NCBI GenBank assembly: GCA_031263565.1
Contig: JAISFR010000118.1
Location: 1 to 25,800 of the forward strand
Length of the DNA stretch: 25,800 bases
Direction of reading: 5' to 3'
Origin: Candidatus Adiutrix sp.
GTDB taxonomy: Bacteria > Desulfobacterota > Desulfarculia > Adiutricales > Adiutricaceae
This document shows positions 1 through 23,398 of the stretch, one piece after another. How positions within the stretch are numbered: the first letter of the stretch is position 1; each line of letters starts with the position of its first letter. The notes under the pieces are model-generated. The model did no database searches. It saw only the letters and a list, made by a program, of their open reading frames with translations, and had not been told where the DNA came from. The translations under genes and the position numbers were made by a program.

Positions 1-1946
1 CCGTCATCAGTCAAGTCACCGACGGCGGCTATAACCCCAATTCTTCTCAGGACATGTTTACCGGCAACACGTTGAACAAAAAGAGCGCGGCCAGTCAGCT
101 TAACGGGACTACCGGTAACGTTGCGGCCGTCAATTTTGAGTATGCTGGGAATGCCAACATCGCCTCTCTCGACACGACTGTCAGAGGGGCGGCGGCATCG
201 CTGGTCCAGTTGAATACAGGGACTTATGACGTCACCTTTGGCGTCGGCAACACCATCACCGGCTCGGGCGGCATTGAAAAACTGGGCGCGGGAATCCTGA
301 CCCTGACCGGCGCGAACAGCTATACCGGCGGCACGACCGTCAGCGCCGGGACCCTGGCGGGCGACACGGACAGTCTGCAAGGCCCGATCACCAACAACGC
401 CGCCGTGCTTTTCGATCAGTCCACCAACGGCACTTACGCGGGCGACATGAGCGGAAGCGGTTCCCTGAGCAAGACCGGCGCGGGAACCCTGACCCTGACC
501 GGCACGAACAGCTATACCGGCATGACCACGGTGGAGAGCGGCACCCTGGCGCTCGGCGCCAATCAGGCTTATTTAAAGGACTTGACCCTGTACGGCGGCG
601 CGACCTTCGATAGAAGCGTCTACAATCATTCACTGGACAACGGTTCCCTGACCGTGCGGGGAGAAGGCGCGACCTATGCCGGCGATTTGAGCGCGGTCGG
701 CGCGACTCTGAACTTCATCGCGCCCGTGACCGTCTCCCAGGCCCTGCTCACGGTGAGCGGCAATGCCGACATCAGCAGCAGTTCCGTCAACGTGGGCCTG
801 ACCGGCGGCACGGCTCTGCCTCTCGGCACGCAACTAACGCTGATTGACGCCAGCGGCAGCCTCACGGCGAACAACCTCAGCGAGGGCGGCGGCATCATGG
901 AATCCGGCGTGACCACGATTTACGGCCTGGCCCTGAGCCCTGACCCGATGACGGGCACCCTGACCGGAACCGTCATCTCCCGCATCGCGAGCGGCCGGAG
1001 CAAGGCTCTTTCCGAAGGCTTTGTTTCCGGCCTGGGCCTGGTCAGCCAGGGCGCGGACCTCATCGCCGGGCAGGGCCTGAGGGAGGCCGTGCGGGCCAGC
1101 CGGGAAACCGGCTACGGCCTCGCCGCCTTCGGCGGTCTTGCCGGCGGCTCCCTGCGCTACAACAGCGGCTCCCATGTGGACCTGGGCAGCCTTTCCTTCC
1201 TGGCCGGGCTGTCTTACGGCGTGGACCTCGCGTCCGCCAGCCTGACCCTGGGCGCGTTTTTTGAATACGGCAACGGTTCCTACGACACCTACAATTCCTT
1301 CAGCAACGCCGCCTCGGTCCACGGGGACGGCGACCTCAGCCACGTCGGCGGCGGCCTTTTGGGGCGCCTGGACTTCCCCGGCGCCGGGCCGGGCCTTTTC
1401 TATGTCGAGGCCTCGGGCCGGGCGGGCGGCGTGCGCAACGATTACGGCAGCTCCGATCTGCGCGATCCCCAGGGCCGCCGGGCGGAATACGACTCCTCTT
1501 CGGCCTACTACGGCTTCCATTTCGGAACCGGCTATGTCTGGAACCTTACGGAGACCGCTTCTCTCGACCTCTACGGCAAATACTTCTGGACGCGGCAGGA
1601 GGGGGATTCCGTCATCCTGAGCACCGGCGACCGGGTGGCCTTTGCGGACGCCGATTCCAGCCGTCTGCGCCTTGGCGGGCGTCTGGCCTGGGCCCTGAAC
1701 GAATACGTCAGCCCCTACTTCGGGGCCGCCTATGAGCATGAGTTCGACGGGCGGGCCAGGGCCACGGCCAACGGTCTCGTCGCCATAGAGGCGCCCTCCC
1801 TGGGCGGCAACACCGGCATCGGGGAACTCGGCCTGACCCTCAAGCCGTCTCAAAGCCGCCCTCTGTCCCTGGACCTGGGCCTGCAGGGCTATACGGGCCG
1901 GAAGGAAGGCCTGACGGGCAGTTTGCAGTTGAGAATTGAGTTCTAA
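1..1946 (+). CDS. Autotransporter (5'-partial; the frame is open to the window edge). Passenger region has PATR-type repeats; C-terminal part is an outer-membrane beta-barrel translocator.
   Basis: Frame 3 is open from nt 3 with no stop before the ATG at 54, so the gene very probably begins upstream of the window. Repeated GTLTLTG(A/T)NSYTG motifs, encoded by ~50-bp direct DNA repeats at about 288-343 and 483-536. Gly/Ser/Thr-rich passenger. C-terminal ~280 aa show alternating aromatic and hydrophobic beta-strand pattern and end in ...LQLRIEF (terminal Phe, an OMP beta-barrel signature). Confidence 0.7.
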   Translation, partial: VISQVTDGGYNPNSSQDMFTGNTLNKKSAASQLNGTTGNVAAVNFEYAGNANIASLDTTVRGAAASLVQLNTGTYDVTFGVGNTITGSGGIEKLGAGILTLTGANSYTGGTTVSAGTLAGDTDSLQGPITNNAAVLFDQSTNGTYAGDMSGSGSLSKTGAGTLTLTGTNSYTGMTTVESGTLALGANQAYLKDLTLYGGATFDRSVYNHSLDNGSLTVRGEGATYAGDLSAVGATLNFIAPVTVSQALLTVSGNADISSSSVNVGLTGGTALPLGTQLTLIDASGSLTANNLSEGGGIMESGVTTIYGLALSPDPMTGTLTGTVISRIASGRSKALSEGFVSGLGLVSQGADLIAGQGLREAVRASRETGYGLAAFGGLAGGSLRYNSGSHVDLGSLSFLAGLSYGVDLASASLTLGAFFEYGNGSYDTYNSFSNAASVHGDGDLSHVGGGLLGRLDFPGAGPGLFYVEASGRAGGVRNDYGSSDLRDPQGRRAEYDSSSAYYGFHFGTGYVWNLTETASLDLYGKYFWTRQEGDSVILSTGDRVAFADADSSRLRLGGRLAWALNEYVSPYFGAAYEHEFDGRARATANGLVAIEAPSLGGNTGIGELGLTLKPSQSRPLSLDLGLQGYTGRKEGLTGSLQLRIEF

Positions 1947-1964: not shown

Positions 1965-2004
1965 AATGTGGCCCGGAGCTTCAGACCTCCGGGCCACATT
2001 TTTA
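1965..2004 (+). terminator. Rho-independent terminator
   Basis: Perfect 14-bp stem aatgtggcccggag / ctccgggccacatt with an 8-nt loop, followed by TTTT at 2001-2004, 19 nt after the autotransporter stop. Confidence 0.7.
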
Positions 2005-2210
2005 TGCCAAAGTTAAATGAATCAGCTCATTTAAACTGAAGTTCCTGACTACCCCCGCTATATCTTTGCATAAAGGGGCAAAAGTAAAGGTACTTCCTTC
2101 GGGCCACTCGTCGCGCCATTGCCTCTGCAATCCCCCCACCTTGATTCAGCCTAACCTGATTCGCCGTAATTGGCAAGGCGCTCTGTCAGGCAAAATTTTG
2201 ATCCAGTCCT

Positions 2211-2238
2211 TTACATGTGAGATATCGTGTGATATAGT
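2211..2238 (+). promoter_or_regulatory. Putative sigma70-type promoter TTACAT-N16-TATAGT, embedded in a TGTG...GATATC...CACA repeat-rich candidate operator.
   Basis: TTACAT at 2211-2216, 16-nt spacer, TATAGT at 2233-2238, about 33 nt upstream of the ATG at 2271. Sits in a 265-bp AT-richer intergenic region. GATATC and TGTGA repeats flank it. Confidence 0.3.
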
Positions 2239-2270
2239 GTATCCACAATTGACGATTGAGGATATCGGCC

Positions 2271-2915
2271 ATGTCCCAAAAAAAGTCGGCCCACTATCAG
2301 CGCCAGTACCGGCAGCGGCTGCGCGACAGGGGCCTGGTCAAGAAGGAAATCTGGATTCTGCCCGAACGGGCGGCTGAACTTCATTATGTGGAGCGGGAGC
2401 TTCGCCGGCCGGGGACCCGGTCCGTCAGCGTCGCCGACGCCGAAAGAGAGGTCGACACCATGAAAGCGGCTCAATTATGGACCACCCAGGAGCTTTACGA
2501 AGCCCTCGCGGCCGCGGACCTGTTCACCGACGGCCGGGCCAGCGTGGAAATTCTTAACGCGGCCGAGCCGTGCCTCCATATCGTCATGCACGATTACGGC
2601 GACCTGCCGCTGTTTTTGACTGTCTCCCGCCAGCACATCCTGGTCGAGGCCCTCTTGTGGCCGACCAGCTCGGTGCGCGACGCGGAGGCCCTCAACCGGG
2701 AGGTGCTGCGGACTCACAAGTTCTTCTCCCTGTCCACCGTGGGGATCGACACCCTGGCCGACGGCCGCGAGCATTACATCATGTTCGGTTCCCTGAGCGC
2801 TTTCTCCGTTTTGTCCGGCATTCTTTTTGAAATTGAAACCCTGGCCGACAACGTAATCCGAGCCACCGAGGCCTATGAGGATTTCCTGGTCGCGGAAAAG
2901 GAGACAGACTTATGA
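2271..2915 (+). CDS. Hypothetical protein. The C-terminal ~140 aa may be a YjfI-like (DUF2170) domain. The N-terminal ~40 aa are basic (possible small DNA-binding extension).
   Basis: ATG at 2271 with a GAGGA Shine-Dalgarno 9 nt upstream (the ORF track's TTG at 2256 is less likely). Its stop overlaps the start of the next gene (ATGA), consistent with the yjfI-yjfJ order seen in E. coli, where YjfI precedes a PspA-family gene. The domain assignment is from memory of that family and is low-certainty. Confidence 0.55.
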   Translation: MSQKKSAHYQRQYRQRLRDRGLVKKEIWILPERAAELHYVERELRRPGTRSVSVADAEREVDTMKAAQLWTTQELYEALAAADLFTDGRASVEILNAAEPCLHIVMHDYGDLPLFLTVSRQHILVEALLWPTSSVRDAEALNREVLRTHKFFSLSTVGIDTLADGREHYIMFGSLSAFSVLSGILFEIETLADNVIRATEAYEDFLVAEKETDL

Positions 2916-3625
2916 ACGTGTGGAGCAAACTGGTAAACGCGGTGCGCGGCGGCGTCAACGATCTCGGCGAGGGGCTGGTCGACAGCCAGGCCCTGCGGAT
3001 ATTGGATCAGGAAATAAGAGACGCTGACGAAGAACTGAAAAAATCCCGGGAAGCCCTGGCTTCCATGATGGCCCGGCAGAAGACGGCCGACGAGGCGGTC
3101 AAAAAGCTGGACGGCAGGATATCCGAATACGAGGGTTACGCCCTGAAAGCTCTGGACCTGGGCAACGAGATTCTGGGGCTGGAGGTGGCTGAAAAGCTGG
3201 CCGGGCTGGAAGTGGAACGCAATGACGAGGCCGACCGGCTGGCCGACACGGCCGAGAGCGTGGCCAGCCTGCGCAGGACCGTGACCCAGGCCGAGAACGG
3301 CATCAAGCGCCTCCGCCAGCAGCTGGACACCATCCGGGCCACCGAGAGCGTGCAGAAGGCCCAGATGACCGTGGCCCGCCGCCAGGGCGGGTCCGACGCC
3401 AAGCTCCAGACCGCTCTGGAATCCTTAGAGCGCATCAAGCAGCGCCAGGAACGGGCGGCGGCCGAAATCGACGCCTACAACGCCCTGTCCGGCGACAGCC
3501 GGGACGAAAGCCTGGAGGCCAAGCTCCGCGCCGCCGGCATCATCGTCAGCGAAGTCAGCGCCGAATCGGTGCTGGCCCGCCTGAAAGAAAAGAAGGCGGC
3601 CACGGAGGGCGAGCAGGAATCATAA
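2912..3625 (+). CDS. PspA/IM30 family protein (YjfJ-like; bacterial ESCRT-III-like membrane-remodelling protein).
   Basis: 237-aa, entirely coiled-coil protein. N-terminal amphipathic helix MNVWSKLVNAVRGGVNDLGEGL, then ...LRILDQEIRDADEELKKSREALA... The layout and several motifs (ATESVQKAQ, LESLERIKQRQERAAAEIDA, VLARLKE) resemble E. coli YjfJ/PspA. AGGAG-type RBS (aaaaggagac) upstream. Translationally coupled to the upstream gene. Confidence 0.85.
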   Translation: MNVWSKLVNAVRGGVNDLGEGLVDSQALRILDQEIRDADEELKKSREALASMMARQKTADEAVKKLDGRISEYEGYALKALDLGNEILGLEVAEKLAGLEVERNDEADRLADTAESVASLRRTVTQAENGIKRLRQQLDTIRATESVQKAQMTVARRQGGSDAKLQTALESLERIKQRQERAAAEIDAYNALSGDSRDESLEAKLRAAGIIVSEVSAESVLARLKEKKAATEGEQES

Positions 3626-3669
3626 GGCCAGGGCGCACCCGGCGCCTTAAAGGCGAAGGTAGGTGGGGC

Positions 3670-4371
3670 ATGATGGAATTTCTGGACAACTGCCTGTCGT
3701 TTCCCGTCAACATCTTCAGCGGGATGATGATCATCGCCGCCATTTACTGGCTGATCGCCTCCTTCGGCCTCTTGGACGTGGACAGCCTGGACCTGGATAT
3801 GGACGTGGGCGGCGACCTCGGCGGGGACGGGCCCGACGTCGGCCTCGGCGACGCGGGGCCGGCGGTGGCCGGCGTCTCCGGCCTGGAGGCCCTGACCAGT
3901 CTCCTGTTCCACCTCGGGCTCTACGGGGTGCCCATGACCCTGATTCTGTCCCTCATCACTCTGACCGGCTGGGTGATTACCTTCTGCGTGTTTGACCTGA
4001 CGCTGGGGCGCTTTCTGGCGCCCGGGCCGCTGCGCTATATCCTGGGCGTCCCGCTCTTCGCGGGGGCCTTCATCGCCGGCGCCCTGCTGACCTCGGTCAT
4101 CATCAGACCGCTGCGGCCGTTTTTTAAAAAAGAACCTTCAGTTACCGCCGCTTCAATCTGCGGGCGCGTGGTGCTGGTCCGTTCCACCCGGGTGACCGAC
4201 AGCTATGGCGAGGCGGTTTACGAAGGCGGCGGGACAAACATGCTCCTGGACGTCCGCCCGGCCCGCGAAGGCGCGGTTTTCAAACGCGGCGACAAAGCGG
4301 TGCTGCTGGATTACGATGCCGCCCGGCGTCTCTATACCATAATCAGTGAAGATGAATTTCGCGGGCGATAG
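3670..4371 (+). CDS. NfeD-like integral membrane protein (YqiJ/YuaF-like partner of flotillin) with a C-terminal OB-fold.
   Basis: Several predicted TM helices (IIAAIYWLIASFGLL; LILSLITLTGWVITFCVF; GVPLFAGAFIAGALLTSVII) with an acidic Gly/Asp-rich loop. C-terminal beta-rich segment GRVVLVRS...GEAVYEGGG...LLDYDAARRLYTI is typical of the NfeD OB-fold. Lies immediately upstream of an SPFH/flotillin gene, as in yqiJK and yuaF-floT. Confidence 0.65.
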   Translation: MMEFLDNCLSFPVNIFSGMMIIAAIYWLIASFGLLDVDSLDLDMDVGGDLGGDGPDVGLGDAGPAVAGVSGLEALTSLLFHLGLYGVPMTLILSLITLTGWVITFCVFDLTLGRFLAPGPLRYILGVPLFAGAFIAGALLTSVIIRPLRPFFKKEPSVTAASICGRVVLVRSTRVTDSYGEAVYEGGGTNMLLDVRPAREGAVFKRGDKAVLLDYDAARRLYTIISEDEFRGR

Positions 4372-4430
4372 GAATTCGTCGAGCGCCTTGACAAAGCCTT
4401 GGAAGGATATTTTAAGCAGGGGGACATCTT

Positions 4431-6338
4431 ATGTTCGGTCTCAGCAGTTCTATTCTGTTTCTGGTTGTGGTGGGCTTTATAGTCCTGACCGCCTTCGGCC
4501 TGGTCGGTCTGATCAAATCATTTTACATCAAGGTGCCCCAGGGGACGGCCCTCATTATCAACAATTTGCAGGCCACCCCCCAGGTCAGCTTCACCGGCGC
4601 CCTGGTTCTGCCGGTGATCCACAAAAAAGAATTCATGAAAATTTCGGTCCTGACCCTGGAAATCGACCGGCGCGGCAAAGACGGCCTCATCTGCAAGGAC
4701 AATCTGCGGGCCGACATTACCGTGGCCTTCTATCTGCGGGTCAATGAAACCGCCGACGACGTGCTGCAGGTGGCTAAAAGCATCGGGGCCGACCGGGCTT
4801 CCGATCCCACCGCCGTGGGCGTGCTGTTCAACGCCAAATTTTCCGAAGCCCTTAAAACAGCGGGCAAGCAGTTTGAACTGCACCGGCTCTTTGAAGAGCG
4901 CCTTCAGTTCCGGGAACGCATTCGCGAGGTCATCGGCAAGGACCTGAACGGTTACAGCCTGGAAGACGTGGCCATCGACTACCTGGAACAGACCTCGGTC
5001 ACCCACCTTGATCCGAACAACATCTTCGACTCGGAAGGCATCCGTAAAATCACCGAAACCACGGCCACCCAGAACGTCATTACCAACGAGGCCGAACGCA
5101 ACAAAGAACTGGCCATTCAGAAAAAGAACGTGGAAACCCGGGAAGCCAGCCTGGCCCTGGAACGTCAGCAGGCCGACGCTGAAGCCCGCCAGAAGCGGGA
5201 AATAGAAACCATCCGGGCCCGCGAGAAGGCGGAAACCCTCAAGGTGCAGGAAGAAGAGCGCTTAAAGGCCGAATACGCCCGCCTGCAGACCGAACAGGAA
5301 ATACAGGTTCGGGAGGAAAACCGGCACCGTGAAGTTGAAGTCGCGCAGCAGAACCGGGTGCGGGCGGTCCAGGTGGAAATGGAGCGGGTCACCCGGGCCA
5401 GGGACCTGGAAGTTGTGGCCCGCGAACGGGAAGTCGAATTGAGCCGCATCGACAAAGAGAAGGCCCTGGAAGAAGAGCGCAAGAACATCGCCAACGTCAT
5501 CCGCGAGCGGGTGGCGGTGGACAAGACCGTGGCCGTCGAGGAAGAGCGGATTAAAGATGTGCGGCTGGTGGCCGAGGCCGAGCGCCAGCGGCAGGTGGTC
5601 ATTATTGACGCCCAGGCCCAGGCCGGGGAAAAGCTGGTCAGCCAGGTGAAAGAGGCCGAGGCGGATAAGGAGCGAGCCCTGTTCAAGGCCGCTGAAATCA
5701 GCACTATGGCCCAGGCCGAACTGGAAGCGGCCACCAGGCAGTCCGAGGCGAAAAAGCGCCTGGCCGAAGGTCTTGAGGCCGAAGAAGCCGCCCTGGGGCT
5801 GGCCGAGGCCAGGGTGCGGCAGGCCAAGGCGGCGGCCGAGGAAAAAGAGGGGCTGGTCCAGGCCAGGGTCCTTGAGGAAAAACTTCTGGCCGAAGCTCGC
5901 GGCCAGGAACAGGTGGGGCTGGTCAAAGCCAGAACCGCCAGGGAATACGGCCTGGCGGAAGCCGACATCATTCGCGAACGCCTCAGAGGCGAGGCCGACG
6001 GGCTCACGGAAAAATTCAAAGCCATCGGCAGCCTGACCGAAGAGGCCCGGGCTCACGAGGAGTTCCGCATCCAATTGGAAAAGCACCTGGAAGCCGCTCT
6101 GGCCTCCATGGAAGCCAACAGGGAAATCGCCCGCGAGCAGGCCGACGTTCTGGCCGCGGCCCTGGCCAAGACCAGCATCGACATCGTCGGCGGCGACGGC
6201 GAGTTCTTCGACACTTTCTCCAAATCGCTCCGGGTGGGCAAGGCCATCAACGGCCTCCTGGGTAAAAGCCCGGCGGCCAACAGCCTGATGGAGGCTATCC
6301 TGTCCCGGGTCGGCCCGTCGGACGGCGACGGCCAATAA
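4431..6338 (+). CDS. Flotillin-like SPFH/band-7 protein (YqiK/FloT family) with a long Glu/Arg/Ala-rich coiled-coil region.
   Basis: N-terminal TM anchor (ILFLVVVGFIVLTAFGLVGLI). SPFH domain (YIKVPQGTALIINN...ISVLTLEIDRRGKDGLICKDNLRADITVAFYLRVN...). Then an ~300-aa EA/ER-rich coiled coil typical of flotillins. RBS agggggac before the ATG at 4431. Confidence 0.85.
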   Translation: MFGLSSSILFLVVVGFIVLTAFGLVGLIKSFYIKVPQGTALIINNLQATPQVSFTGALVLPVIHKKEFMKISVLTLEIDRRGKDGLICKDNLRADITVAFYLRVNETADDVLQVAKSIGADRASDPTAVGVLFNAKFSEALKTAGKQFELHRLFEERLQFRERIREVIGKDLNGYSLEDVAIDYLEQTSVTHLDPNNIFDSEGIRKITETTATQNVITNEAERNKELAIQKKNVETREASLALERQQADAEARQKREIETIRAREKAETLKVQEEERLKAEYARLQTEQEIQVREENRHREVEVAQQNRVRAVQVEMERVTRARDLEVVAREREVELSRIDKEKALEEERKNIANVIRERVAVDKTVAVEEERIKDVRLVAEAERQRQVVIIDAQAQAGEKLVSQVKEAEADKERALFKAAEISTMAQAELEAATRQSEAKKRLAEGLEAEEAALGLAEARVRQAKAAAEEKEGLVQARVLEEKLLAEARGQEQVGLVKARTAREYGLAEADIIRERLRGEADGLTEKFKAIGSLTEEARAHEEFRIQLEKHLEAALASMEANREIAREQADVLAAALAKTSIDIVGGDGEFFDTFSKSLRVGKAINGLLGKSPAANSLMEAILSRVGPSDGDGQ

Positions 6339-6350
6339 CGGGTGACGGCG

Positions 6351-9300
6351 ATGGCGGAAATTAAAGATGAAAAGCTTGAGGCTCTGGACGCGGCGGTAGC
6401 CGAGGGCGGGGCTTATGAAATCCTCCGCCGGCGCCTGTCGGACCTGGGCGGCCAACTGCGGGCGGCCGCCCAGGATCTCAACGAACGCCGGCTGGCCGAA
6501 TTCGGCAAGAGCGAGATGGACCTTGCCGGCCGGGTGCGCATCCGGACCGAGAACAACTGCATGGCCCGCGACATCGTCCAGGTCGGCGGCTTACTCCTGT
6601 TCGGCTACAACGTTTTCATCGGGCTGAAAAAAGAAACCCGGGTGGAAGACGTGTTTTCCCTCTATAAGCTGGAAGACCGGGGCGGCGACTATGAAGCCGT
6701 GCCGATACCCCTGGCCGACACTTTTCTGGCCGACCCGGTCTTCGTCCGCGATTTCACCGAACTCTACACCTATTACAAAGACGCCGGCCTTTTGCAGCTT
6801 TCGGTCTGGGACGGCAAGCTTCTGGCCAGCTTCAGGATAGGCCTCAAGGTTTCCGATGTGCGGGTTTTCCGCTGGTCTGTTTCGGCGGACGGGCGTAACC
6901 TAAGCTATATCGACAATCGCGGCGAGCGCGACATCAAGCTTCCGCCGGCCCATGATTTTGAATGGGTTCGCACCGGGCGGGAAAACGCCGTGGGCGGGCG
7001 GCACCCGCACGTCAATATTCTGGACACGGTTTTCGTCGAAACCGTGGGCGGCGATTTGACCGTCAAGATGGAAAACAATACCGAAAGCGGCCTGGGCATT
7101 TACCGCGAAGACGTGCTGGACAAAACCCAATCCCTTGATGACGGGCAGATCGAATACGCCAGGGTCGGCAGCCTGATTCTCCTGAAAATATTGCCCTACC
7201 GGGAAACCGTGTGGCGCTATCTCGTTTACAACAGCCTGACCCATGACGTCCGCCGCATCGACGCCATCGGCCAGGCCTGCCTCGAACTGCCGGAAGATCA
7301 CGGCATCATCTTTCCCGGCGGCTGTTATCTTCAGAACGGGGAGTGGAAGACTTTTGACCAGCCCATGAACGGCATGCTCTTCCGCCGCCAGCGCAAATCG
7401 CCCAACGGCGAGGATGTGCTTTACGTTTTCTATGATCCTGAAGCCGGCCGTCTGACTCTGTTCAATTACAACCTGATTGAGCGGGCCCTGGCTTCACCCA
7501 TCATGGGCGACGGTTACACTCTTCTGGAGGACGGCCGCATGATTCTCTTTGAGGATCAGGGCGACGAAGCCACCCGGATTCACCCGATGCAGATTTGGCG
7601 AACCCCTTTTTACACCGACGAGTACGCCGCCCTGACCAGGAGCCGCAACACCGTTCTGTCCCGCGTCGGCAACGCCGACCTGGTGCGCGGCATTTCCGAT
7701 TTGTACAATATTGTGAGGGAGGTTGAAGCGCCGAGGGTTTCTTCGGCCCTCTACAACAAGCTCAGCCAGGACGCCCGCCGCCTGTTCGACGCCTATTTCT
7801 GGATGAAGGATGAGGAAAACTTCAAAGTCGCCGCCGTTCTGCGGGAAATAGCCAGGACCGGCGAACTGGTCATCGATGAATATGAGAAGGTGGAAAGCAT
7901 CCGCAAGCAGGCCGAAAAAGCTCTGCGCGAGGCGGCCGCCGCCCAGAAGGAACTGTTCGGCAAACTGACGCCGGACGCCTGGGACAATATCCGCGAATTC
8001 TCCGACGGCCTGGAAAGCGTCCAACTGCAGCGCGGCCGGCTCATATCCCTGCGCGCTCTGCGCTATATTGATCTGGCCGGCATCGATCAATTGGAAGCGG
8101 AACTGAAAACGCGGGAAGATGAAGTCGCCCGCGGGGCGGCCGTTTTCCTGGCCGGGGACAGGGCTCTGGCGCCCTATACGGCCGCGCTTGTTCAGCTCGA
8201 CACGCAGACCGCCAGGGCGCCCAACGTGGCCGCTTTGGCCGCCGCCGGCGCGGAGCTGGAAAAAATAAGCGGCGACCTGGATGCCCTGTCCGCGCTCATG
8301 TCTTCCGTTCCCTTTGAAGACGCGACCTGGCAGACGAGGATTATTGAAGACATTTCCGAGGTCTATGCCCGGACCAATCAGGCCCGGGCCCGGCTGGCCG
8401 CGCGCCGCCGGGAACTCGGCGGGGCCGAGGACCAGGCCCGGTTCGGGGCCCGGTTCAAGCTTTTCAGCCAGACTATGGCCTCGGCCGTGACCCTGGCCAC
8501 CGACCCCGAGCGATGCGACGAAGAGCTGGCCCGGCTTCTTTTGCAGCTTGAGGAAATGGAAAGCCAGTTCGGGGACTATGAGGAATTTTCAGCCGATATC
8601 CTGCAAAAACGGGAAGAGTTGCTGGAAACTTTCGAATCGCGCAAGCAAACTCTTCTGGACGCCCGTCAGCGCCGGGCCCAGGGCCTGGCCGGCAGTGCCC
8701 GGCGCATCTTGGAAACCCTGCCGCGCCGCACCGCCCGTCTGGCCGCCATTGAGGAGATTAATGCCTTTTTCGCGGCCGACCCCATGGTGCTCAAGCTCCG
8801 GGACCTGACCGACAGCCTGCGCGCCCTGAAAGACAGCGTCAGGGCCGAGGACCTGGAAGCCCGGTTCAAGGCGGCCCGGGACCAGGCCCTGCGCGGTCTG
8901 CGCGACAAGACCGAACTTTACGAGGACGGCGGGGCCACCATCCGCCTCGGGCCGCGCCACCGCTTCAGCGTCAATACCCAGGAGCTTGACCTGACCGTTC
9001 TGCCCCAGGAAGGCGAACTGCGGCTTTCGTTAACCGGCACCGATTTTCAGGAGCCGGTGCGGGATGCCGGCCTGGAGGATATGCGTCAATTTTGGGGAAT
9101 GGTCATTGAATCGGAATCGGCGGACGTCAGTCGGGCCGAGTTCCTGGCTTATGAAATTCTGCAAGCCGCGCGCTCCGGGCGGGACGGCTTTGACTATGAA
9201 GAGATGCGGGCCATGTTGAGCCGGCCGGAAGAACTGGAGGCCAAGGTCAGAGCCTTTGCCGCGCCCCGCTATCGCGAGGGTTATGAAAAGGGCCTGCACG

Positions 9301-11612
9301 ACCGGGATGCTTTTTTGATTCTGCAGAATATTCTGCCCCTGATCGACAGCGCCGGCCTGCTCCGCTTTCCGCCGGCGGCCCGGGCGCTGGCCATGCTGTT
9401 CTGGCAAAGGGTCCGTCACGAGCCCGGGCCCTCGACCTGGATTGAGAGCGCCCGCGCCAGCCAGGCTGTCGGCCTTTTGTACCATCACGACGGCGGGCTT
9501 GAAACCCTGCGGGCGGAAATAGAAAAGAGCCTGATCTCCTTTCTGGGCGACAGCGGTTTCGAGCTCCAGCCCGACTGCCTGGCCCAGGCCTCGGAGTTTC
9601 TTTCCCTGACCCTGGCCCGGCAGCCGGAAGAATTCGTTTGCGGTAAATACGCGCGAACCCTGTATCGGCAACTGCGGGCCCAGTTGGAGGCCCGCCACCT
9701 CTGGAGCGGTTACGCCAATGTGCAGCGGGAACATCCTGAACGCCTGGCCTGGCGCTGGAAGATGATGACCGGCTGGCTGCGGGGCCTGGCCGCCCAGCCC
9801 GAATATGAGCCTCTGGCCGCTTATGTTGAGGAGGCCGCCGCCCTGGCCATTGCCGACAACAGCGGAGAGATGAATGTTCAGTTCAGCGAAACCGATTTGG
9901 CGGTGACCGTCGAAGGCCTGATGAGTTCTCATCCGCGGATAAAAGAGGGCCGCCTGACCCTGGCCATTGACGATTTTTTCAGCCGGCTGCGGCGCCACAA
10001 GCGTCAGATGCAGCCTGGTTATCACAGTTATCAGCAGCGGCGTCACGCCTTTCTGGAAAAAGAGCGCGACCGGCTGCGTCTGGACGACTTTAAGCCCCAG
10101 CCGCTGACCTCCTTTGTTCGCAACCGTTTGATCGACGAGGTTTATCTGCCGATCATCGGCGACAATCTGGCCAGGCAGATGGGGGCTTCGGGGGAGGCCC
10201 GCCGCAGCGACCTGATGGGTCTCCTGATGCTCATCTCCCCGCCGGGTTACGGCAAGACCACCCTCATGGAATATGTGGCCCACGCTTTGGGGTTGATCTT
10301 CATGAAGATCAACGGACCTTCCCTCGGCCGCGCGGTGCTGTCCCTGGATCCCGCCCAGGCCCCGGACGGGACGTCCGGACAGGAGTTGCGTAAACTTAAT
10401 CTGGCCCTGGAGATGGGCAACAACGTCATGCTTTATGTGGACGACATTCAGCACACCAACCCCGAGTTTCTGCAGAAATTTATTTCTCTGTGCGATGCGA
10501 CCCGCCGCATTGAAGGCGTCTGGAACGGGCGCGGCAAAACTTACGACCTGCGCGGCAAGAAGTTCTGCGTGGTCATGGCCGGCAACCCTTACACCGAGTC
10601 GGGCGAAGTTTTCAAAATTCCGGACATGCTGGCCAACCGGGCCGACGTCTATAATCTCGGCGAGGTGCTCGGCGGCCTGGAGGAGGCCTTTGCCCGGAGC
10701 TACATCGAAAACAGCCTGACCTCCAACCCGGTTCTGGCGCCTCTGGCCCAGCGGGATATGAAAGACCTCCATCACTTCCTGGAGCGGGCCCAGGGCAAGG
10801 CTTTCAGCGCCGGAGAACTGAGGTGCGACTACAGTGAAGCCGAGCAGACCGAGATCCCCGCGGTCTTAAGCCGCCTCCTGACTCTGCGGGATACGGTGAT
10901 GAAGGTCAACCGCCATTACATCGCCAGCGCCGCCCAGTCCGACAAATACCGCTCCGAGCCGCCCTTCAGGCTCCAGGGCAGTTACCGCAACATGAACAAG
11001 CTGGCCGGACAGGTTTCGGCGGTGATGAACGAGCGGGAACTGGAAGGCCTGCTGGACGACATGTACGCCGGCGAGGCCCAGCTCCTGACCGGTTTCGCCG
11101 AGGAGAACCTGTTGAAGCTGGCCGAGATAAGGGGCCGCCAGTCGCCGGAGCAGGCCGCCAGGTGGGCCGAGATCAAAAGGCAGTTCAATCGGGACAAGAC
11201 TTTCGGCGGGGACGGCGCCGAAGCCGGCGACCGGCTGGTGGCCCAGTTGGCCGATCTGGCCCACTATGTCAAAATTCTGGGTGAACGGAGCGGCGGCGGC
11301 TCAGACAAGCTGTCGGGGCAGCTGGCCAACCTGGTGGCGGCCGTGGCGGCCGTCAGCGGCGGCCGGAAAGTGGTCAAGATGTCGGACCTTATGGAGCAGG
11401 TCAACAGCGCCCGCAATAAATCAACCGTTATTCCCCATATTCAGCCGCTTCAAGTCCAGCCCGCTGTTTCAAAGCCGGCCGCTCCGCCTCAGGGAGGGCC
11501 GGCTGCGGCGGCCCGGGCCCGCACCGGGCCCGGCCAGGGGCATCAAGCGCCGCCGAACCCCCACGCGCCTCAGCCGCCTCGCCGACCGGCGCCGCCCAAA
11601 CCCAAGTCCTGA
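6351..11612 (+). CDS. Giant multidomain protein (~1753-1756 aa). Large N-terminal region of unknown function with mixed alpha/beta and coiled-coil segments. C-terminal AAA+ ATPase module of MoxR/AAA_5-like type. Pro-rich basic disordered C-terminal tail.
   Basis: Start is ATG at 6351 (or GTG at 6342), 4-13 nt after the flotillin stop, so translationally coupled. Walker A ISPPGYGKTTLMEY at about nt 10240-10265. Walker B-like MLYVDDIQHTNPEFLQKF, resembling MoxR DEINRAPPEVQ, at about 10430-10470. Followed by sensor-like VVMAGNPYTESGE and ANRADVYNLG. Tail ...PPQGGPAAAARARTGPGQGHQAPPNPHAPQPPRRPAPPKPKS. I recognise no match to a named family for the first ~1280 aa. Confidence 0.8.
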   Translation: MAEIKDEKLEALDAAVAEGGAYEILRRRLSDLGGQLRAAAQDLNERRLAEFGKSEMDLAGRVRIRTENNCMARDIVQVGGLLLFGYNVFIGLKKETRVEDVFSLYKLEDRGGDYEAVPIPLADTFLADPVFVRDFTELYTYYKDAGLLQLSVWDGKLLASFRIGLKVSDVRVFRWSVSADGRNLSYIDNRGERDIKLPPAHDFEWVRTGRENAVGGRHPHVNILDTVFVETVGGDLTVKMENNTESGLGIYREDVLDKTQSLDDGQIEYARVGSLILLKILPYRETVWRYLVYNSLTHDVRRIDAIGQACLELPEDHGIIFPGGCYLQNGEWKTFDQPMNGMLFRRQRKSPNGEDVLYVFYDPEAGRLTLFNYNLIERALASPIMGDGYTLLEDGRMILFEDQGDEATRIHPMQIWRTPFYTDEYAALTRSRNTVLSRVGNADLVRGISDLYNIVREVEAPRVSSALYNKLSQDARRLFDAYFWMKDEENFKVAAVLREIARTGELVIDEYEKVESIRKQAEKALREAAAAQKELFGKLTPDAWDNIREFSDGLESVQLQRGRLISLRALRYIDLAGIDQLEAELKTREDEVARGAAVFLAGDRALAPYTAALVQLDTQTARAPNVAALAAAGAELEKISGDLDALSALMSSVPFEDATWQTRIIEDISEVYARTNQARARLAARRRELGGAEDQARFGARFKLFSQTMASAVTLATDPERCDEELARLLLQLEEMESQFGDYEEFSADILQKREELLETFESRKQTLLDARQRRAQGLAGSARRILETLPRRTARLAAIEEINAFFAADPMVLKLRDLTDSLRALKDSVRAEDLEARFKAARDQALRGLRDKTELYEDGGATIRLGPRHRFSVNTQELDLTVLPQEGELRLSLTGTDFQEPVRDAGLEDMRQFWGMVIESESADVSRAEFLAYEILQAARSGRDGFDYEEMRAMLSRPEELEAKVRAFAAPRYREGYEKGLHDRDAFLILQNILPLIDSAGLLRFPPAARALAMLFWQRVRHEPGPSTWIESARASQAVGLLYHHDGGLETLRAEIEKSLISFLGDSGFELQPDCLAQASEFLSLTLARQPEEFVCGKYARTLYRQLRAQLEARHLWSGYANVQREHPERLAWRWKMMTGWLRGLAAQPEYEPLAAYVEEAAALAIADNSGEMNVQFSETDLAVTVEGLMSSHPRIKEGRLTLAIDDFFSRLRRHKRQMQPGYHSYQQRRHAFLEKERDRLRLDDFKPQPLTSFVRNRLIDEVYLPIIGDNLARQMGASGEARRSDLMGLLMLISPPGYGKTTLMEYVAHALGLIFMKINGPSLGRAVLSLDPAQAPDGTSGQELRKLNLALEMGNNVMLYVDDIQHTNPEFLQKFISLCDATRRIEGVWNGRGKTYDLRGKKFCVVMAGNPYTESGEVFKIPDMLANRADVYNLGEVLGGLEEAFARSYIENSLTSNPVLAPLAQRDMKDLHHFLERAQGKAFSAGELRCDYSEAEQTEIPAVLSRLLTLRDTVMKVNRHYIASAAQSDKYRSEPPFRLQGSYRNMNKLAGQVSAVMNERELEGLLDDMYAGEAQLLTGFAEENLLKLAEIRGRQSPEQAARWAEIKRQFNRDKTFGGDGAEAGDRLVAQLADLAHYVKILGERSGGGSDKLSGQLANLVAAVAAVSGGRKVVKMSDLMEQVNSARNKSTVIPHIQPLQVQPAVSKPAAPPQGGPAAAARARTGPGQGHQAPPNPHAPQPPRRPAPPKPKS

Positions 11613-11614
11613 TG

Positions 11615-11650
11615 TTGACAAAGCCCCCGGCGTTGACAAAACCCCCGGCG
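11615..11650 (+). repeat. Tandem 18-bp direct repeat TTGACAAAGCCCCCGGCG / TTGACAAAACCCCCGGCG, immediately after the giant gene's stop.
   Basis: Seen directly: 17 of 18 positions identical, head-to-tail, each copy starting with a -35-like TTGACA. The same TTGACAAAGCC 11-mer also occurs at 4388-4398, between the NfeD and flotillin genes. Confidence 0.5.
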
Positions 11651-11654
11651 GCTC

Positions 11655-11683
11655 TTGGCGGGCGGGCTTTTCTGTGCTATAAT
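11655..11683 (+). promoter_or_regulatory. Putative sigma70 promoter with extended -10 (TTGGCG-N17-TGcTATAAT) for the downstream cell-wall cluster.
   Basis: Perfect TATAAT at 11678-11683, preceded by TGc (extended -10). TTGGCG lies 17 nt upstream. About 60 nt upstream of the lipoprotein ATG at 11744. Confidence 0.45.
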
Positions 11684-11743: not shown

Positions 11744-12358
11744 ATGCCGCCCTTCAGAAAAATGCTGCTGCTCGGCCTGGCGGCCGCTCTGGCGCTGGGC
11801 CTGGGCGCCTGCGGGCGCGGCCCTTTCTCTCCGGAGGCCCGGCGTCAGTCCCGGGAACTGGATCAATACCTCAAAGCGCTTCAGGCTGATCTGCTCACTG
11901 ACGACACTTTTGAATGGAATACTCTTTCTTCGGCCCTGACCGTCAAAGCCCTGGCCTATTCCGGCCCGGTGCGCCAGGCCGCCGAACAGCGCTTCAGGGG
12001 CGACCCCGCGTTTCAGGAAGAAAGCTCCCGCTGGGCTCAGGCCCCCGGCCGCCGTCATCCGCCGCTGGTCATCCTGATGGGGCTCTTCGCCCCGGACCTT
12101 CAGGAGCAAGACGTCGCCCCGGCCGGGCGTTTCCGCCCCCGCCTCCGGACCGCCGACGGACGGAGCCTCAAGCCTCTGGAGATTAAGAGCTATGGCCGCG
12201 GCTCGGTTTTTGTCCGTGACCATTTCCCGGTTTTCAACCCCTGGGAGGCGGTTTATCTGCTGCGCTTCCCCTCACCCGGGGCCGGCCCTGAGGGGCGGCT
12301 CGATTTCCTCCTGGAATGGCCGGGCGGCGTTCAGACCATGGCTATCAATGACCGCTGA
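11744..12358 (+). CDS. Putative lipoprotein of unknown function
   Basis: ATG at 11744 with a GGGAGAG RBS 7 nt upstream. Signal peptide MPPFRKMLLLGLAAALALGLGAC with lipobox LGAC. The longer ORF-track start at 11612 merely reads through the tandem DNA repeat (LTKPPALTKPPA) and is rejected. Confidence 0.6.
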   Translation: MPPFRKMLLLGLAAALALGLGACGRGPFSPEARRQSRELDQYLKALQADLLTDDTFEWNTLSSALTVKALAYSGPVRQAAEQRFRGDPAFQEESSRWAQAPGRRHPPLVILMGLFAPDLQEQDVAPAGRFRPRLRTADGRSLKPLEIKSYGRGSVFVRDHFPVFNPWEAVYLLRFPSPGAGPEGRLDFLLEWPGGVQTMAINDR

Positions 12359-12434: not shown

Positions 12435-14216
12435 GTGATCCGGCGGATTCAAATCGCCGTTCTGGCGCTGATCTGCCTGACGGCCGGCCGGGCCCCGGCC
12501 GCCCCGGGCGACATGCTGCCCGACGCCATCCTCTATCCCGGCGACCGGCCCGGCCATATCCTGGTGGCGGACAAGGCTGAGCAGATGCTCTACCTCTACA
12601 GCCATGACGGCCAGGGCCGGGTGCGCCTGGAACGGATCATGCCCTGTTCCACCGGCGAAATAAAAGGCGACAAAATGATTCAGGGGGACAGAAAGACCCC
12701 CAACGGTTTCTATATTTTCAATGAAAAGCTGCTGCCCCGCGAGCTTTCGCCGATTTACGGCGCTTTGGCCTATCCCACCGACTACCCCAATTTCTGGGAC
12801 AGGAAAATGGGGCGCGGCGGATACGGCATCTGGATCCACGGCATCAACAAACCCCTGGCGGATTACGATTCCAACGGCTGCATCGAACTGGAAAATGCCG
12901 ACATCGCCCGGATGGAGGAATTGATCCGGCTCTACGACACCCCGCTGATCACCTACGAGACGATGACCCAGGCTCCGGTGGAGCAGTTGGAAGCCGAGGG
13001 GCGTCTTCTGCGGGACTTTCTGGAAACCTGGCGCCGCGCCTGGGCCGGGAAGGACCACGCCGCCTATCGCCGCCTTTATGACCCTGAATTCGTCAATTCC
13101 GACGGCCGCTCCTTTTCCGGCTGGATGACCCACAAGGAGAACGTGGCCCGGAATTATCAGACCATCACCGTGGAAATCAAGGATTTGAAGATCTACCGCC
13201 ACCGGGACGTGCTGCTGGCCGTCTTCGAGCAGGACTATCGGGGCGATCAGCGATTCACCTCCATAGGCCTTAAGCGCCTGTATCTGAAGAAAGAGGACGG
13301 CGCCTATAAAATCATCGGCGAAGAATTTCGCCCGCTGCCCGAACCGGAAACCCGCAAATGGCTGACTGCCGCCGAAAAGCGCCGCGCTTTGGAGACCCCG
13401 CCGCTGACCGTGGCCAAAGCCCAGACTCCGGCGGCCGGATCCGAGGTCCCCGGAACTTCGGAGCAAGCCCGGGCTGTGGCCGATCAGGCCGGGGCGGCCG
13501 CCGGGCTCCAGGCCGAAGCCGCCCGGGCGGAAGCCGAAGCCCGGGCCGCCCAAGCCCGGGCGGCCGCCGAGGTCCAGGCCCAAGCCGCCCAAGTTCAGGC
13601 GGCCGCCGAGGCCCAGGCCCAAGCCCGGGCGGAAGCGGAAGCCCAAGCCGCCCAAGTTCAGGCGGCAGCCGAGGCCCAGGCCCAAGCCCAGGCGGAAGCG
13701 GAAGCCGAAGCCCAAGCCGCCCAAGCCCGGGCGGAAGCCGAAGCCGAAGCCCAGGCCCGGGCGGCAGCCGAAGCGGCCGGCCGGGACCAGGCCCGGCTCG
13801 AGGCCGAAACCAGAGCCCTGGAGGCCGCCCGAATTCGAGCCGAAGCCCGGGCCGCCGAGGAAGCCCGGATAAAACAGGAACTGACCACCCTGGTCAGAAA
13901 CTGGGCCGCGGCCTGGAGCCGCCGGGACGCCGGGGCCTACCTGGCTTTTTATCATCCTGATTTCTATTTTGACGACAAAGACCTGGACCTGGCCGGCTTC
14001 ATCAACTACCGCCGGCCTCTGATCGAAGAGGCCTCGGTCATTGAAGTCAAGGTCTCCAATTTCGACGTCCGGCTGGACGGCGAAACGGTCCGGGTCATTT
14101 TCCGTCAGGACTACCGCTCTGACCATTACCGTGACCGGGGGCGCAAGACCCTGACCTTGAAAAGGGACGCGGGCCTCTGGAAAATCGTGGCCGAGACCTG
14201 GAAGGCCCTGAGATGA
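12435..14216 (+). CDS. Secreted L,D-transpeptidase-fold (YkuD) protein with an Ala/Glu/Gln-rich repeat linker and two NTF2-like (SnoaL/DUF4440-like) domains. Csd6/Pgp2-like candidate L,D-carboxypeptidase or L,D-transpeptidase.
   Basis: GTG start with signal peptide MIRRIQIAVLALICLTAGRAPAAP. YkuD catalytic region ...GYGIWIHGINKPLADYDSNGCIELENADI (conserved His and Cys). Two copies of an NTF2-like module (LRDFLETWRRAWAGKDHAAYRRLYDPEF... and LTTLVRNWAAAWSRRDAGAYLAFYHPDF...), separated by an (EAQA)n low-complexity linker. Confidence 0.75.
   Translation: MIRRIQIAVLALICLTAGRAPAAPGDMLPDAILYPGDRPGHILVADKAEQMLYLYSHDGQGRVRLERIMPCSTGEIKGDKMIQGDRKTPNGFYIFNEKLLPRELSPIYGALAYPTDYPNFWDRKMGRGGYGIWIHGINKPLADYDSNGCIELENADIARMEELIRLYDTPLITYETMTQAPVEQLEAEGRLLRDFLETWRRAWAGKDHAAYRRLYDPEFVNSDGRSFSGWMTHKENVARNYQTITVEIKDLKIYRHRDVLLAVFEQDYRGDQRFTSIGLKRLYLKKEDGAYKIIGEEFRPLPEPETRKWLTAAEKRRALETPPLTVAKAQTPAAGSEVPGTSEQARAVADQAGAAAGLQAEAARAEAEARAAQARAAAEVQAQAAQVQAAAEAQAQARAEAEAQAAQVQAAAEAQAQAQAEAEAEAQAAQARAEAEAEAQARAAAEAAGRDQARLEAETRALEAARIRAEARAAEEARIKQELTTLVRNWAAAWSRRDAGAYLAFYHPDFYFDDKDLDLAGFINYRRPLIEEASVIEVKVSNFDVRLDGETVRVIFRQDYRSDHYRDRGRKTLTLKRDAGLWKIVAETWKALR
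13490..13800 (+). repeat. In-frame tandem GCC-GAA/GCC-CAA-type repeats, with a period of about 61 bp plus shorter 6-bp units, encoding an (E/Q)A-repeat linker.
   Basis: Seen directly: the near-identical block gcccaagccgcccaagttcaggcggc(c/a)gccgaggcccaggcccaagccc occurs at ~13580-13627 and ~13641-13688. Surrounding sequence is gccgaagcc/gcccaggcc repeats encoding AEAQAQAEAEA. Confidence 0.6.
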
Positions 14217-14305
14217 ACCCCAACGGCTGAATGATGAGCCCCTCGCGCGGAAAAGCGCCCGCCAAGGGACGCTGGAATATCTTGATCATCCGCCCCAGGG
14301 GCGAG

Positions 14306-15079: not shown

Positions 15080-15124
15080 GCCGCCCCCCGGGTCGGCGGC
15101 CTCCCCTGGAAAGGTTCGATTTTA

Positions 15125-22822: not shown

Positions 22823-23398
22823 TCATTTGCCGGCTGAAGCCGCGGTCGCGGTTTCCTGCTTTTGGGCGTCGGCCAGTTGCCGGGCTCTGGGGCCGGTGAT
22901 GGCCCTGACCGTCACTTTGGCCACCCCGGATTTGAGCAGGCCCATTTCCGCGGCGGCGGCCCGGGACAGGTCGATGATCCGGCCTTTGACGAAGGGGCCC
23001 CGGTCGTTGATGCGCAGGGCCAGAACCTTGTTGGTTTCCAGGTTCCTGACTTCCACCCAGGTGTGGAGGGGCAGGGTCTTGTGGGCCGCCGTGACGCGGT
23101 TCATGTCGTAAATTTCGCCGCTGGCGGTTTGGCGGCCGTGGAAGGGCTCCCCGTACCAGGAGGCCAGACCTTTTTCCCGGAAGCCTTCGGCCGAGGCCAG
23201 GATATGATAGCGCTGGCCGTTGATGACGTAAGATTTGCCGCTGCGGTTCGTCCCGAAGAAGCCGCAGCCGCCGGTCAGCAGAACCAGCCCCAGAATGAGC
23301 AATATTTTGGCATAGAAAATGCTTTCAGATAAGTCGATTTTTAGCGAGAGAACTTGGGAGGTTTTTTCGGCGTTATGATTCGCGGGTTCGTTCAGCAT
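22823..23398 (-). CDS. rlpA: Septal ring lytic transglycosylase RlpA family lipoprotein (DPBB domain)
   Basis: Minus-strand ATG at 23398 with an AGGAG RBS 6 nt upstream. Hydrophobic segment plus lipobox-like ILLILGLVLLTGGCG. Conserved RlpA DPBB block ASWYGEPFHGRQTASGEIYDMNRVTAAHKTLPLHTWVEVRNLETNKVLALRINDRGPFVKGRIIDLSRAAAAEMG. The ORF-track extension up to 23662 is rejected because it is the antisense of the dacB signal-peptide repeat. Confidence 0.75.
   Translation of the reverse strand: MLNEPANHNAEKTSQVLSLKIDLSESIFYAKILLILGLVLLTGGCGFFGTNRSGKSYVINGQRYHILASAEGFREKGLASWYGEPFHGRQTASGEIYDMNRVTAAHKTLPLHTWVEVRNLETNKVLALRINDRGPFVKGRIIDLSRAAAAEMGLLKSGVAKVTVRAITGPRARQLADAQKQETATAASAGK

Follow-up and report, generated by a model that had tools for sequence, protein, structure and literature searches.

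A 25,800-nt stretch of DNA from Candidatus Adiutrix sp. (contig JAISFR010000118.1, positions 1 to 25,800; hereafter the window) carries on its plus strand five closely packed open reading frames, ORF1 to ORF5, spanning positions 2271–11612 (from 2256 if a TTG start is used), which by their sequences almost certainly constitute the Candidatus Adiutrix copy of the published bac-type operon, bacABCDE (Table 1). This operon class was described by Ravi et al. (2024, mSystems, PMC11237479; bioRxiv 2020) as a CesT/Tir-PspA dyad together with a band-7/flotillin protein, a three-transmembrane protein of the YqiJ/YuaF type and a novel AAA+ protein with a beta-propeller and a coiled coil; a phospholipase D (PLD) hydrolase is present in some versions ('in some Proteobacteria'), and shorter, dyad-less versions are more widespread. 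The Pseudomonas aeruginosa version, bacABCDEF, corresponds to PA3732-PA3727 and PA14_16140-16200 (Mace 2008, Wallart 2024, Garcia-Maldonado 2026). The system is therefore not undescribed, as the original prediction had proposed, because its architecture, including the giant AAA+ protein, has been published (PMC11237479) and the P. aeruginosa operon has been studied experimentally (PMC2587700, PMC10948618, PMC13086221). We consider that the unit probably acts as an envelope-stress operon, combining a flotillin/YqiJ scaffold, a PspA-like polymer, a MoxR-type scaffold-remodelling ATPase and a BacA autorepressor.

The five ORFs lie in the positions, and with the tiny or overlapping junctions, originally reported for them, and these overlaps and short gaps suggest that they are co-transcribed as one unit. 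ORF1 most likely starts at the ATG at 2271, because a GAGGA sequence precedes it by 7 nt and because, in the ORF read from TTG, the match to the NCBIfam BacA model sets in at residue 6. In P. aeruginosa PA14, reverse transcription PCR established that bacA to bacF are co-transcribed, and in a bacA mutant the remaining Bac proteins accumulate to excess (PMC10948618).

Profile and pairwise comparisons identified the first two genes directly. ORF1 matches Pfam DUF2170 (157 bits), positions 1–204 of the 206 of the NCBIfam model 'biofilm formation regulator BacA' (NF050185; 296 bits, for a cut-off of 300) and the BacA crystal structure 8q8o (E 7e-39, residues 72–213 of the 219-aa ORF from TTG 2256), and its C-terminal domain is 37% identical to E. 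coli YjfI. ORF2 matches Pfam PspA_IM30 over model positions 1–218 of 220, with 154 bits against a cut-off of 33.9; among the E. coli proteins tested, its closest is YjfJ (34% identity, E 6e-26), and its score of 21 bits against TIGR02977 (cut-off 243) does not make it an ortholog of E. coli PspA. Polymer formation and membrane remodelling are the predicted activities of this BacB-like protein.

The flotillin and YqiJ-like proteins of the window are too divergent for the Pfam Band_7, Flot and YqiJ models. ORF3 did not match the YqiJ_N, YqiJ_OB or NfeD profiles, nor any Pfam, NCBIfam or PDB sequence; ORF4 gave no Pfam match, to Band_7 or Flot even at E ≤ 10, and no NCBIfam or PDB sequence match, and the BacD orthologue of Pseudomonas paraeruginosa likewise lacks a Band_7 or Flot match in Pfam. 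They were identified through their E. coli counterparts, YqiJ and YqiK. Alignment of 14 ORF3 homologues with E. coli YqiJ by hhalign gave 84% probability (E 7e-6, 138 columns), a likeness at profile level only, and ORF3 is probably a YqiJ/YuaF-like (NfeD-type) protein. Residues 7–448 of ORF4 align with E. coli YqiK by BLASTP (E 1e-48, 28% identity over 450 aa) and by hhalign (99.9%), and E. coli YqiK itself has Pfam matches to Band_7 at 39–192 and to Flot at 406–530; by these comparisons, ORF4 is clearly a YqiK-type flotillin homologue. With its 635 aa, it is shorter than its close homologues (672–750 aa; alignment A2, columns 469–555), having one to three fewer E/A-rich coiled-coil repeat units and lacking a short C-terminal tail, which looks like variation in repeat number and not like truncation by a frameshift.

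The gene identities originally proposed from the sequence, and the joining of a yjfIJ-like with a yqiJK-like pair in one unit, were thus borne out by Pfam, BLASTP and hhalign, with the NfeD-type nature of ORF3 only probable. E. coli yjfIJ (a DUF2170 and a PspA-family protein) is homologous to ORF1-ORF2, and yqiJK (YqiJ and a flotillin) to ORF3-ORF4, although the likeness of ORF3 to YqiJ is weak; however, the two E. coli pairs occupy separate loci, and neither contains an AAA+ gene.

ORF5 is a single uninterrupted frame that aligns colinearly with its homologues over 93–100% of its length, at 57–86% identity, so the giant gene is not the frameshift-riddled pseudogene that would have undermined its interpretation. 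The NCBI entry 'DNA repair ATPase [Candidatus Adiutrix sp.]' matches it at 100% identity, and the P. aeruginosa orthologue at 62%. Its C-terminal ATPase matches Pfam AAA_5 (27.8 bits, cut-off 22), and this, together with the structure comparison described below, confirmed its assignment as a MoxR/AAA_5-like module; it is not the only recognisable module of the protein, as had been thought, since Pfam also recognises DUF3686 (655 bits) and DUF7902. The DUF3686 region, which consists of beta-propeller repeats according to Ravi et al. (PMC11237479), has no sequence relative in PDB, where a profile search with the giant protein returned only P-loop matches to RuvB and NVL. The DUF3686 family is of modest size: when 1.84 billion representative sequences are grouped at 50% identity, it accounts for 725 clusters, and its full-length members measure about 1600–2000 aa. 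The P. aeruginosa cluster contains 3222 member sequences.

To place the operon among its relatives, we compared 79 loci in other genomes, one genome per species, taken as best matches and biased toward close relatives; 65 of these were scorable, having 4.6 kb or more of sequence before the ATPase gene. The loci came from Pseudomonadales, Enterobacterales (Budviciaceae, Morganellaceae), Orbales, Lysobacterales, Cellvibrionales, Alteromonadales, Burkholderiales, Zetaproteobacteria, Longimicrobium (Gemmatimonadota) and a second Adiutrix metagenome-assembled genome (MAG). YqiJ-like and flotillin genes precede the ATPase gene on the same strand in every scorable locus (65/65), the bacC-type gene always lying directly 5' of the flotillin gene. 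The bacA and pspA genes are also present in 53 of the 65, in the order bacA-pspA-YqiJ-flotillin-ATPase, an arrangement conserved in Gamma-, Beta- and Zetaproteobacteria, Gemmatimonadota and Desulfobacterota. Chance juxtaposition, the concern for which a neighbourhood comparison had been proposed, is excluded by this synteny. The bacA-pspA pair is missing from the remaining 12 loci, 11 of which have no PspA homologue within 10 kb, while one (L070) keeps a PspA-like gene and lacks bacA. Because the flotillin and YqiJ-like genes occur in all scorable loci and BacA and PspA only in 53, the ATPase is genetically tied to the flotillin/YqiJ pair at least as strongly as to PspA. Identity across phyla is unusually high for the flotillin (51–67%) and the ATPase (49–62%), and lower for the YqiJ-like protein (26–44%).

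The junction between the flotillin and ATPase genes evidently tolerates insertions: the two genes are adjacent in most loci, and an extra 0.7–3.5 kb separates them in eight. Unrelated ORFs occupy this position in L033 (6500-9960), L076 (7997-9897), L052 (7640-9492) and L027 (6605-8751), the insert of the zetaproteobacterial L076 consisting of a gene of about 306–311 aa duplicated in tandem, its two copies being nearly identical. The gene 3' of the ATPase is also variable: in 21 loci it encodes a rhomboid protease, its start frequently overlapping the preceding stop by 4 nt, in 12, including Pseudomonas, a PLD/HKD protein, and elsewhere assorted products; the window contains neither a PLD/HKD (bacF) nor a rhomboid gene after the ATPase gene.

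The closest experimental reference is the Pseudomonas operon. P. aeruginosa shares with the window the bacA to bacE order and the same palindromic sites upstream of bacA, and the sister species P. paraeruginosa (locus L007) shows identities of 51% for BacA, 62% for BacB, 41% for BacC and 66% for BacD. In L007, the giant ATPase gene directly follows the flotillin gene, and its BacA includes the stretch ARVWNARSLAEAL of 8q8o; the giant ATPase is therefore assigned as BacE, on account of this position, of this stretch and of the 62%-identical P. aeruginosa orthologue. The window differs from the Pseudomonas operon in having no bacF, its place being followed by an unrelated lipoprotein-like gene with its own promoter where L007 has a PLD/HKD gene, in having no sigma54-like site, in having a 32-nt leader where Pseudomonas has a -10-like box a few nt from the ATG, and in its host, an uncultured Desulfobacterota-type symbiont of the termite gut. 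Relative to the operon of Ravi et al., all five components are found here in one unit, and dyad-less operons were likewise recovered in our survey; the frequent rhomboid variant, the N-terminal domain of BacA and the upstream palindrome, the latter two described below, are all unmentioned by these authors.

The most conserved part of BacA is its basic N-terminus of about 45 aa (KSSAHYQRxYRQRLREQGLVKKEVWILPE...LRQP; alignment A5). This domain gave weak matches to MazE-like/DUF3018 (PF11455) in 26 of 39 members, with a best E of 7.6e-4, and is missing both from E. coli YjfI (133 aa) and from the crystallised 146-residue P. aeruginosa BacA (8q8o). Since the latter begins at an internal Met and lacks the conserved domain, the short P. 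aeruginosa BacA annotation may be N-terminally truncated.

Lining up the DNA 5' of bacA across loci revealed a 10-bp palindrome, TYACATGTRA. Exact copies occur 90 times in the 53 bacA-containing loci (1.29 Mb), and 86 of these lie within 150 nt upstream of bacA; at least one copy is present in 47 of the 53 loci, and two or more in 36. The usual arrangement is of two copies 21–25 bp apart that bracket a TTGAC-type -35 box. In the 25 loci without a detected bacA (14 of which have too little upstream sequence to score this gene), the motif was found once, far from the operon. The window contains a perfect copy overlapping the -35 hexamer, which is its only match to the consensus with up to one mismatch in 25.8 kb, and a degenerate candidate copy 12 nt further on; in the sister Adiutrix MAG (L001), the corresponding second site is TTAGATGTGA (9/10), with the same 12-nt spacing. 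The palindrome is likely the operator of BacA. Both the palindrome and the N-terminal domain, which co-occur, are new observations, the domain being unmentioned in the literature on BacA.

Regarding the promoter, the region upstream of ORF1 and a separate promoter and repeat after the last gene, all noticed originally, were recovered in our sequence scan (Table 1). The sister MAG L001 shows the same TTTACATGTGA...TGTGATATA promoter layout, and the leader of the window, of 32 nt, carries the GAGGA Shine-Dalgarno sequence. The sigma54 consensus TGGCAC-N5-TTGC, allowing up to two mismatches, was not found at 1950-2270; a sigma54-like near-consensus site was absent upstream in 49 of 54 loci and present in five, and the site proposed for P. 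aeruginosa is not conserved. Many Pseudomonas-type loci (L006-L064) have a -10-like box (TAGTCT/TAGGCT) about 7–10 nt before the bacA ATG and no Shine-Dalgarno sequence, which hints at a bacA mRNA that is leaderless or has a very short leader.

The simplest regulatory model would make BacA an autorepressor of the operon whose activity is tuned by the PspA-like BacB, because the bacA mutant over-accumulates Bac proteins, a BacA-BacB contact is predicted and the palindrome tracks bacA. The contact comes from AlphaFold, with a probability of 0.981 (PMC13092808). This arrangement would resemble the classical psp system (pspF-pspABCDE) in its PspA-family effector, its stress induction and its negative feedback through a PspA-binding protein, presumably BacA here and PspF there. 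It differs in that the window has no PspB, PspC or PspF and no sigma54 promoter, and in that the regulator would be a small repressor instead of an AAA+ enhancer-binding activator.

The class of the ATPase bears on what BacE might act upon. Its Walker A (GYGKTT), its DD Walker B, N1415 and R1433 are invariant in the alignment of homologues, and the AlphaFold2 (AF2) model places a pre-sensor-1 beta-hairpin at about residues 1389-1402, between alpha3 and beta4. In structure comparisons, the modelled AAA+ fold was closest to MoxR ATPases (CbbQ, NorQ) and to midasin. The Walker B is not the canonical DE, having DD at 1367-1368; no aromatic pore-loop motif was found in the conserved stretch after beta2 (residues 1322-1344), no MIT domain was detected in ORF5 by Pfam, and none of the window ORFs scanned contains a VWA domain. 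AAA proteins of the classical clade, such as Vps4, lack the pre-sensor-1 insert. As modelled, then, BacE is a MoxR-type AAA+ protein and not Vps4-like in the strict sense, and it would act as a switch- or puller-type remodeller, like MoxR proteins, rather than as a threading unfoldase. Known MoxR remodellers (CbbQ-CbbO, NorQ-NorD, RavA-ViaA) are proteins of about 300 aa with a VWA/MIDAS partner, whereas the AAA+ module of BacE is fused behind some 1280 residues comprising DUF3686, DUF7902 and a helical region; BacE also differs from these remodellers and from midasin in its DD Walker B and in having no VWA protein nearby.

These features bear directly on the role originally suggested for the giant protein, that of the missing bacterial analogue of Vps4, a ring that would disassemble or recycle PspA/IM30 polymers with flotillin and NfeD as a mere platform. 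PspA is ESCRT-III-like and shares the operon with the ATPase in 53 of the 65 loci, and ATP-dependent remodelling was suggested for PspA-AAA+ associations by Ravi et al. (PMC11237479). This linkage to PspA recalls the association of Vps4/CdvC with ESCRT-III in archaea and eukaryotes, where an AAA+ protein also goes with an ESCRT-III-superfamily polymer, by analogy only. However, BacE persists without the bacA-pspA pair in 12 of the 65 loci, which keep YqiJ, flotillin and ATPase genes; it belongs to another AAA+ clade, with the modelled hairpin that Vps4 lacks, and has neither a MIT domain nor an aromatic pore loop nor a DE Walker B. The proposed role is weakened by these loci and by the MoxR-type clade, and we consider it unlikely.

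Our preferred reading, the envelope-stress operon, can be drawn in more mechanistic terms, although we put these details forward tentatively and somewhat doubt that all of them would hold. BacA would be a two-domain autorepressor, its basic N-terminal domain sitting on TYACATGTRA over the sigma70 promoter and its CesT-like domain on BacB, and recruitment of BacB to damaged membrane would change the hold of BacA on the operator, a partner switch like that of PspA and PspF. BacC (YqiJ-like, NfeD-type) and the flotillin BacD would assemble at the inner membrane into an SPFH scaffold or cage, and at this platform the ESCRT-III-like BacB polymer would seal or remodel the stressed bilayer. BacE would dock through its beta-propeller and a coiled-coil arm and, working as a slow ATP-dependent switch or puller, would assemble, reshape or recycle the flotillin scaffold; in loci with BacB, the polymer of this protein may be a further substrate. 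The primary partner of the ATPase would thus be the flotillin/YqiJ pair, with PspA as an add-on module. In its boldest form, the model would have BacE-type giants remodel bacterial flotillin/SPFH cages, and in second place PspA/ESCRT-III-like polymers, at the expense of ATP, as the first proteins known to do so; their MoxR-type motor, carried on the beta-propeller and coiled-coil arm, would open, close or recycle the membrane scaffold under envelope stress, and the whole unit would be switched by a hitherto unrecognised repressor domain of BacA that reads TYACATGTRA and senses free BacB. We regard this as rather doubtful.

Several points weigh against the envelope-stress reading. We know of no biochemical datum for BacC, BacD or BacE in any organism. 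A VWA/MIDAS partner, with which MoxR ATPases normally cooperate, is not encoded here. For the ATPase, the AF2 model is of medium quality (predicted local distance difference test, pLDDT, 76), with the P-loop strand and residues 1418-1434 below 50; the one for ORF4, built on a 13-sequence alignment, has a pLDDT of 56, falling below 50 across residues 31-206, and its SPFH fold rests on the homology to YqiK. For the regulatory part, DNA binding by the N-terminal domain of BacA is something that we infer from its sequence: the similarity to PF11455 falls under the Pfam gathering score, and a PDB profile search with this domain returned no relative. The window has one perfect palindrome, its second copy matching at 7/10, and the P. 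aeruginosa authors propose a sigma54 promoter, which was found neither in the window nor in 49 of the 54 loci. Additionally, deletion of the P. aeruginosa flotillin PA14_16180 (PaFlo3) lowered biofilm by about 20% and had no other phenotype (PMC13086221). In favour of the reading, by contrast, mutation of PA3731 (BacB), which is induced by osmotic shock, led to defects in biofilm, swarming, rhamnolipid production and virulence (PMC2587700).

The unit was also considered as an anti-phage defence or abortive-infection module, in which phage perturbation of the membrane would be sensed and the ATPase, together with a PLD or rhomboid protein in other genomes, would be the effector. PLD nucleases or lipases and large ATPases are common in defence systems, a PLD (HKD) or rhomboid gene follows the ATPase gene in many genomes, and the distribution of the system is patchy, as if horizontally acquired; PA3728 is also mentioned in two papers on how phages interact with P. 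aeruginosa. Nevertheless, a PADLOC scan gave no meaningful match for any component, yielding coiled-coil noise for PspA and, for the ATPase, a P-loop match only (E 0.004). The neighbours are an autotransporter and peptidoglycan enzymes and not a defence island, the system is core in P. aeruginosa (3222-sequence cluster), and the phenotypes on record concern osmotic induction, biofilm and virulence, all of which makes this alternative highly improbable. That ORF5 is a DNA-repair ATPase in an incidental membrane-gene context, as its NCBI name, the Pfam description of DUF3686 ('ATPase involved in DNA repair') and weak RuvB matches would have it, is scarcely credible, as the RuvB similarity covers about 45 residues around the P-loop (E ~0.01), the protein showed no domain of the nuclease, helicase or DNA-binding kind, none of the papers searched mentions DUF3686, and the gene follows YqiJ-like and flotillin genes in 65/65 loci.

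Table 1. Features of the bac-type operon of the window, of its surroundings and of selected related loci (positions refer to the window unless a locus is given)
Feature	Position	Strand	Details
ORF1	2256 (TTG) to 2915, likely start ATG 2271	+	GAGGA Shine-Dalgarno 7 nt 5' of ATG
bacA-like gene (ORF1), 214 aa	2271..2915	+	N-terminal basic domain of ~45 aa, variable linker, C-terminal DUF2170 CesT/Tir-like chaperone fold
BacA N-terminal domain	2271-2435; L007 5683-5847		basic, highly conserved
bacB-like gene (ORF2), 237 aa	2912..3625	+	PspA/IM30 (bacterial ESCRT-III-like), YjfJ subfamily; ATGA overlap (4 nt, 2912-2915), start overlapping the bacA stop
bacC-like gene (ORF3), 233 aa	3670..4371	+	membrane protein; gap to ORF2 of 44 nt; N-terminal hydrophobic segments, acidic Gly/Asp-rich loop, C-terminal soluble beta-rich domain
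bacD-like gene (ORF4), 635 aa	4431..6338	+	YqiK-type flotillin/SPFH; gap to ORF3 of 59 nt; N-terminal transmembrane helix, divergent SPFH domain, very long coiled coil with E/A-rich repeats, C-terminal flotillin-like region
bacE-like gene (ORF5), 1756 aa	6342 (GTG) to 11612	+	gap to ORF4 of 3 nt, or 12 nt from the NCBI start ATG 6351; DUF3686, DUF7902, long helical middle, one MoxR-like AAA+ module, helical C-terminal domain, Pro/Ala-rich tail
DUF3686 domain of ORF5 (residues 39-486)	6456..7799	+	Pfam PF12458, 655 bits
AAA+ core of ORF5 (~residues 1286-1440)	10197..10661	+	Walker A GYGKTT 1302-1307, Walker B DD 1367-1368, sensor-1 N1415, R1433
Palindrome TTACATGTGA	2211..2220		perfect 10 bp, consensus TYACATGTRA; overlaps the -35 hexamer; motif scan
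Candidate second operator copy TATCGTGTGA	2223..2232		degenerate (7/10); in the promoter spacer, 12 nt after the first
Sigma70-like promoter TTTACA-17-TATAGT	2210..2238	+	extended -10 TG; 10/12 match in promoter scan
Autotransporter gene	54..1946		upstream of operon; Pfam autotransporter matches
Hairpin terminator GGCCCGGAG-N8-CTCCGGGCC, then T-run	1970..1996	+	read from the sequence; the scan reports the same stem on the opposite strand
18-nt tandem repeat, 2 x GTTGACAAARCCCCCGGC	11614-11649	+	TTGACA in each unit; directly 3' of the ORF5 stop
Promoter-like site TTGGCG-17-TATAAT	11655-11683	+	near-consensus, for the next gene; promoter scan
Lipoprotein-like ORF (signal LGLGAC)	likely ATG 11744..12358	+	own promoter upstream
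Rhomboid genes 3' of ATPase gene, examples	L002 14955-15527; L008 15220-15786		
PLD genes 3' of ATPase gene, examples	L006 15176-15865; L007 15204-15911		

The limits of the unit could be traced on both sides. Upstream, the predicted hairpin is the terminator of the autotransporter gene and marks the 5' boundary of the operon. Downstream, the region after the giant gene showed unremarkable folding (z 0.84), with no significant terminator structure. The lipoprotein-like ORF that follows has no Pfam match and no homologue in any of the 79 loci, and was rejected as a sixth member of the operon for want of a counterpart in related loci; as it matches none of the 3' genes found elsewhere, the system ends at ORF5.

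The GC content of the operon region, 57–65%, is in the same range as that of the rest of the contig. The Adiutrix flotillin and ATPase are 60–66% identical to the proteins of insect-associated Enterobacterales and Orbales (Xenorhabdus, Proteus, Pragia, Gilliamella) and of Pseudomonas, values that are very high for proteins from different phyla and thus suggest horizontal transfer of the whole operon.

Elsewhere on the contig, positions 12435-17050 and 22823-24745 are rich in peptidoglycan-remodelling genes, encoding a YkuD L,D-transpeptidase with two Cds6_C/NTF2-like domains and a long A/E/Q-rich repeat, an M99 (Csd4-like) carboxypeptidase, an RlpA-like DPBB protein and an S13 D-Ala-D-Ala carboxypeptidase; this neighbourhood is not shared by the operon loci of other genomes. 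Two overlapping plus-strand ORFs in different frames (18524-18985 and 18873-19448) both contain WG_beta_rep repeats and perhaps represent a single gene, interrupted by a frameshift or through faulty assembly.

To our knowledge, no ATP-driven factor has been shown for the assembly or recycling of bacterial flotillin cages or of PspA/IM30 polymers, and the bac-type operon class is the most direct genetic hint at such a factor; in P. aeruginosa, it has been connected with the formation of biofilms and with virulence. Although the architecture had already been published, the window extends the class to a Desulfobacterota-type insect-gut symbiont. The comparison of loci also adds refinements that can be tested, namely the linkage of the ATPase to the flotillin/YqiJ pair, at least as strong as that to PspA, an ATPase of the MoxR and not of the Vps4 type, and a probable, overlooked DNA-binding domain of BacA with its operator. 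If the N-terminal domain of BacA does bind this operator, the published 146-aa structure and the sigma54 model may miss the regulatory part of the system.

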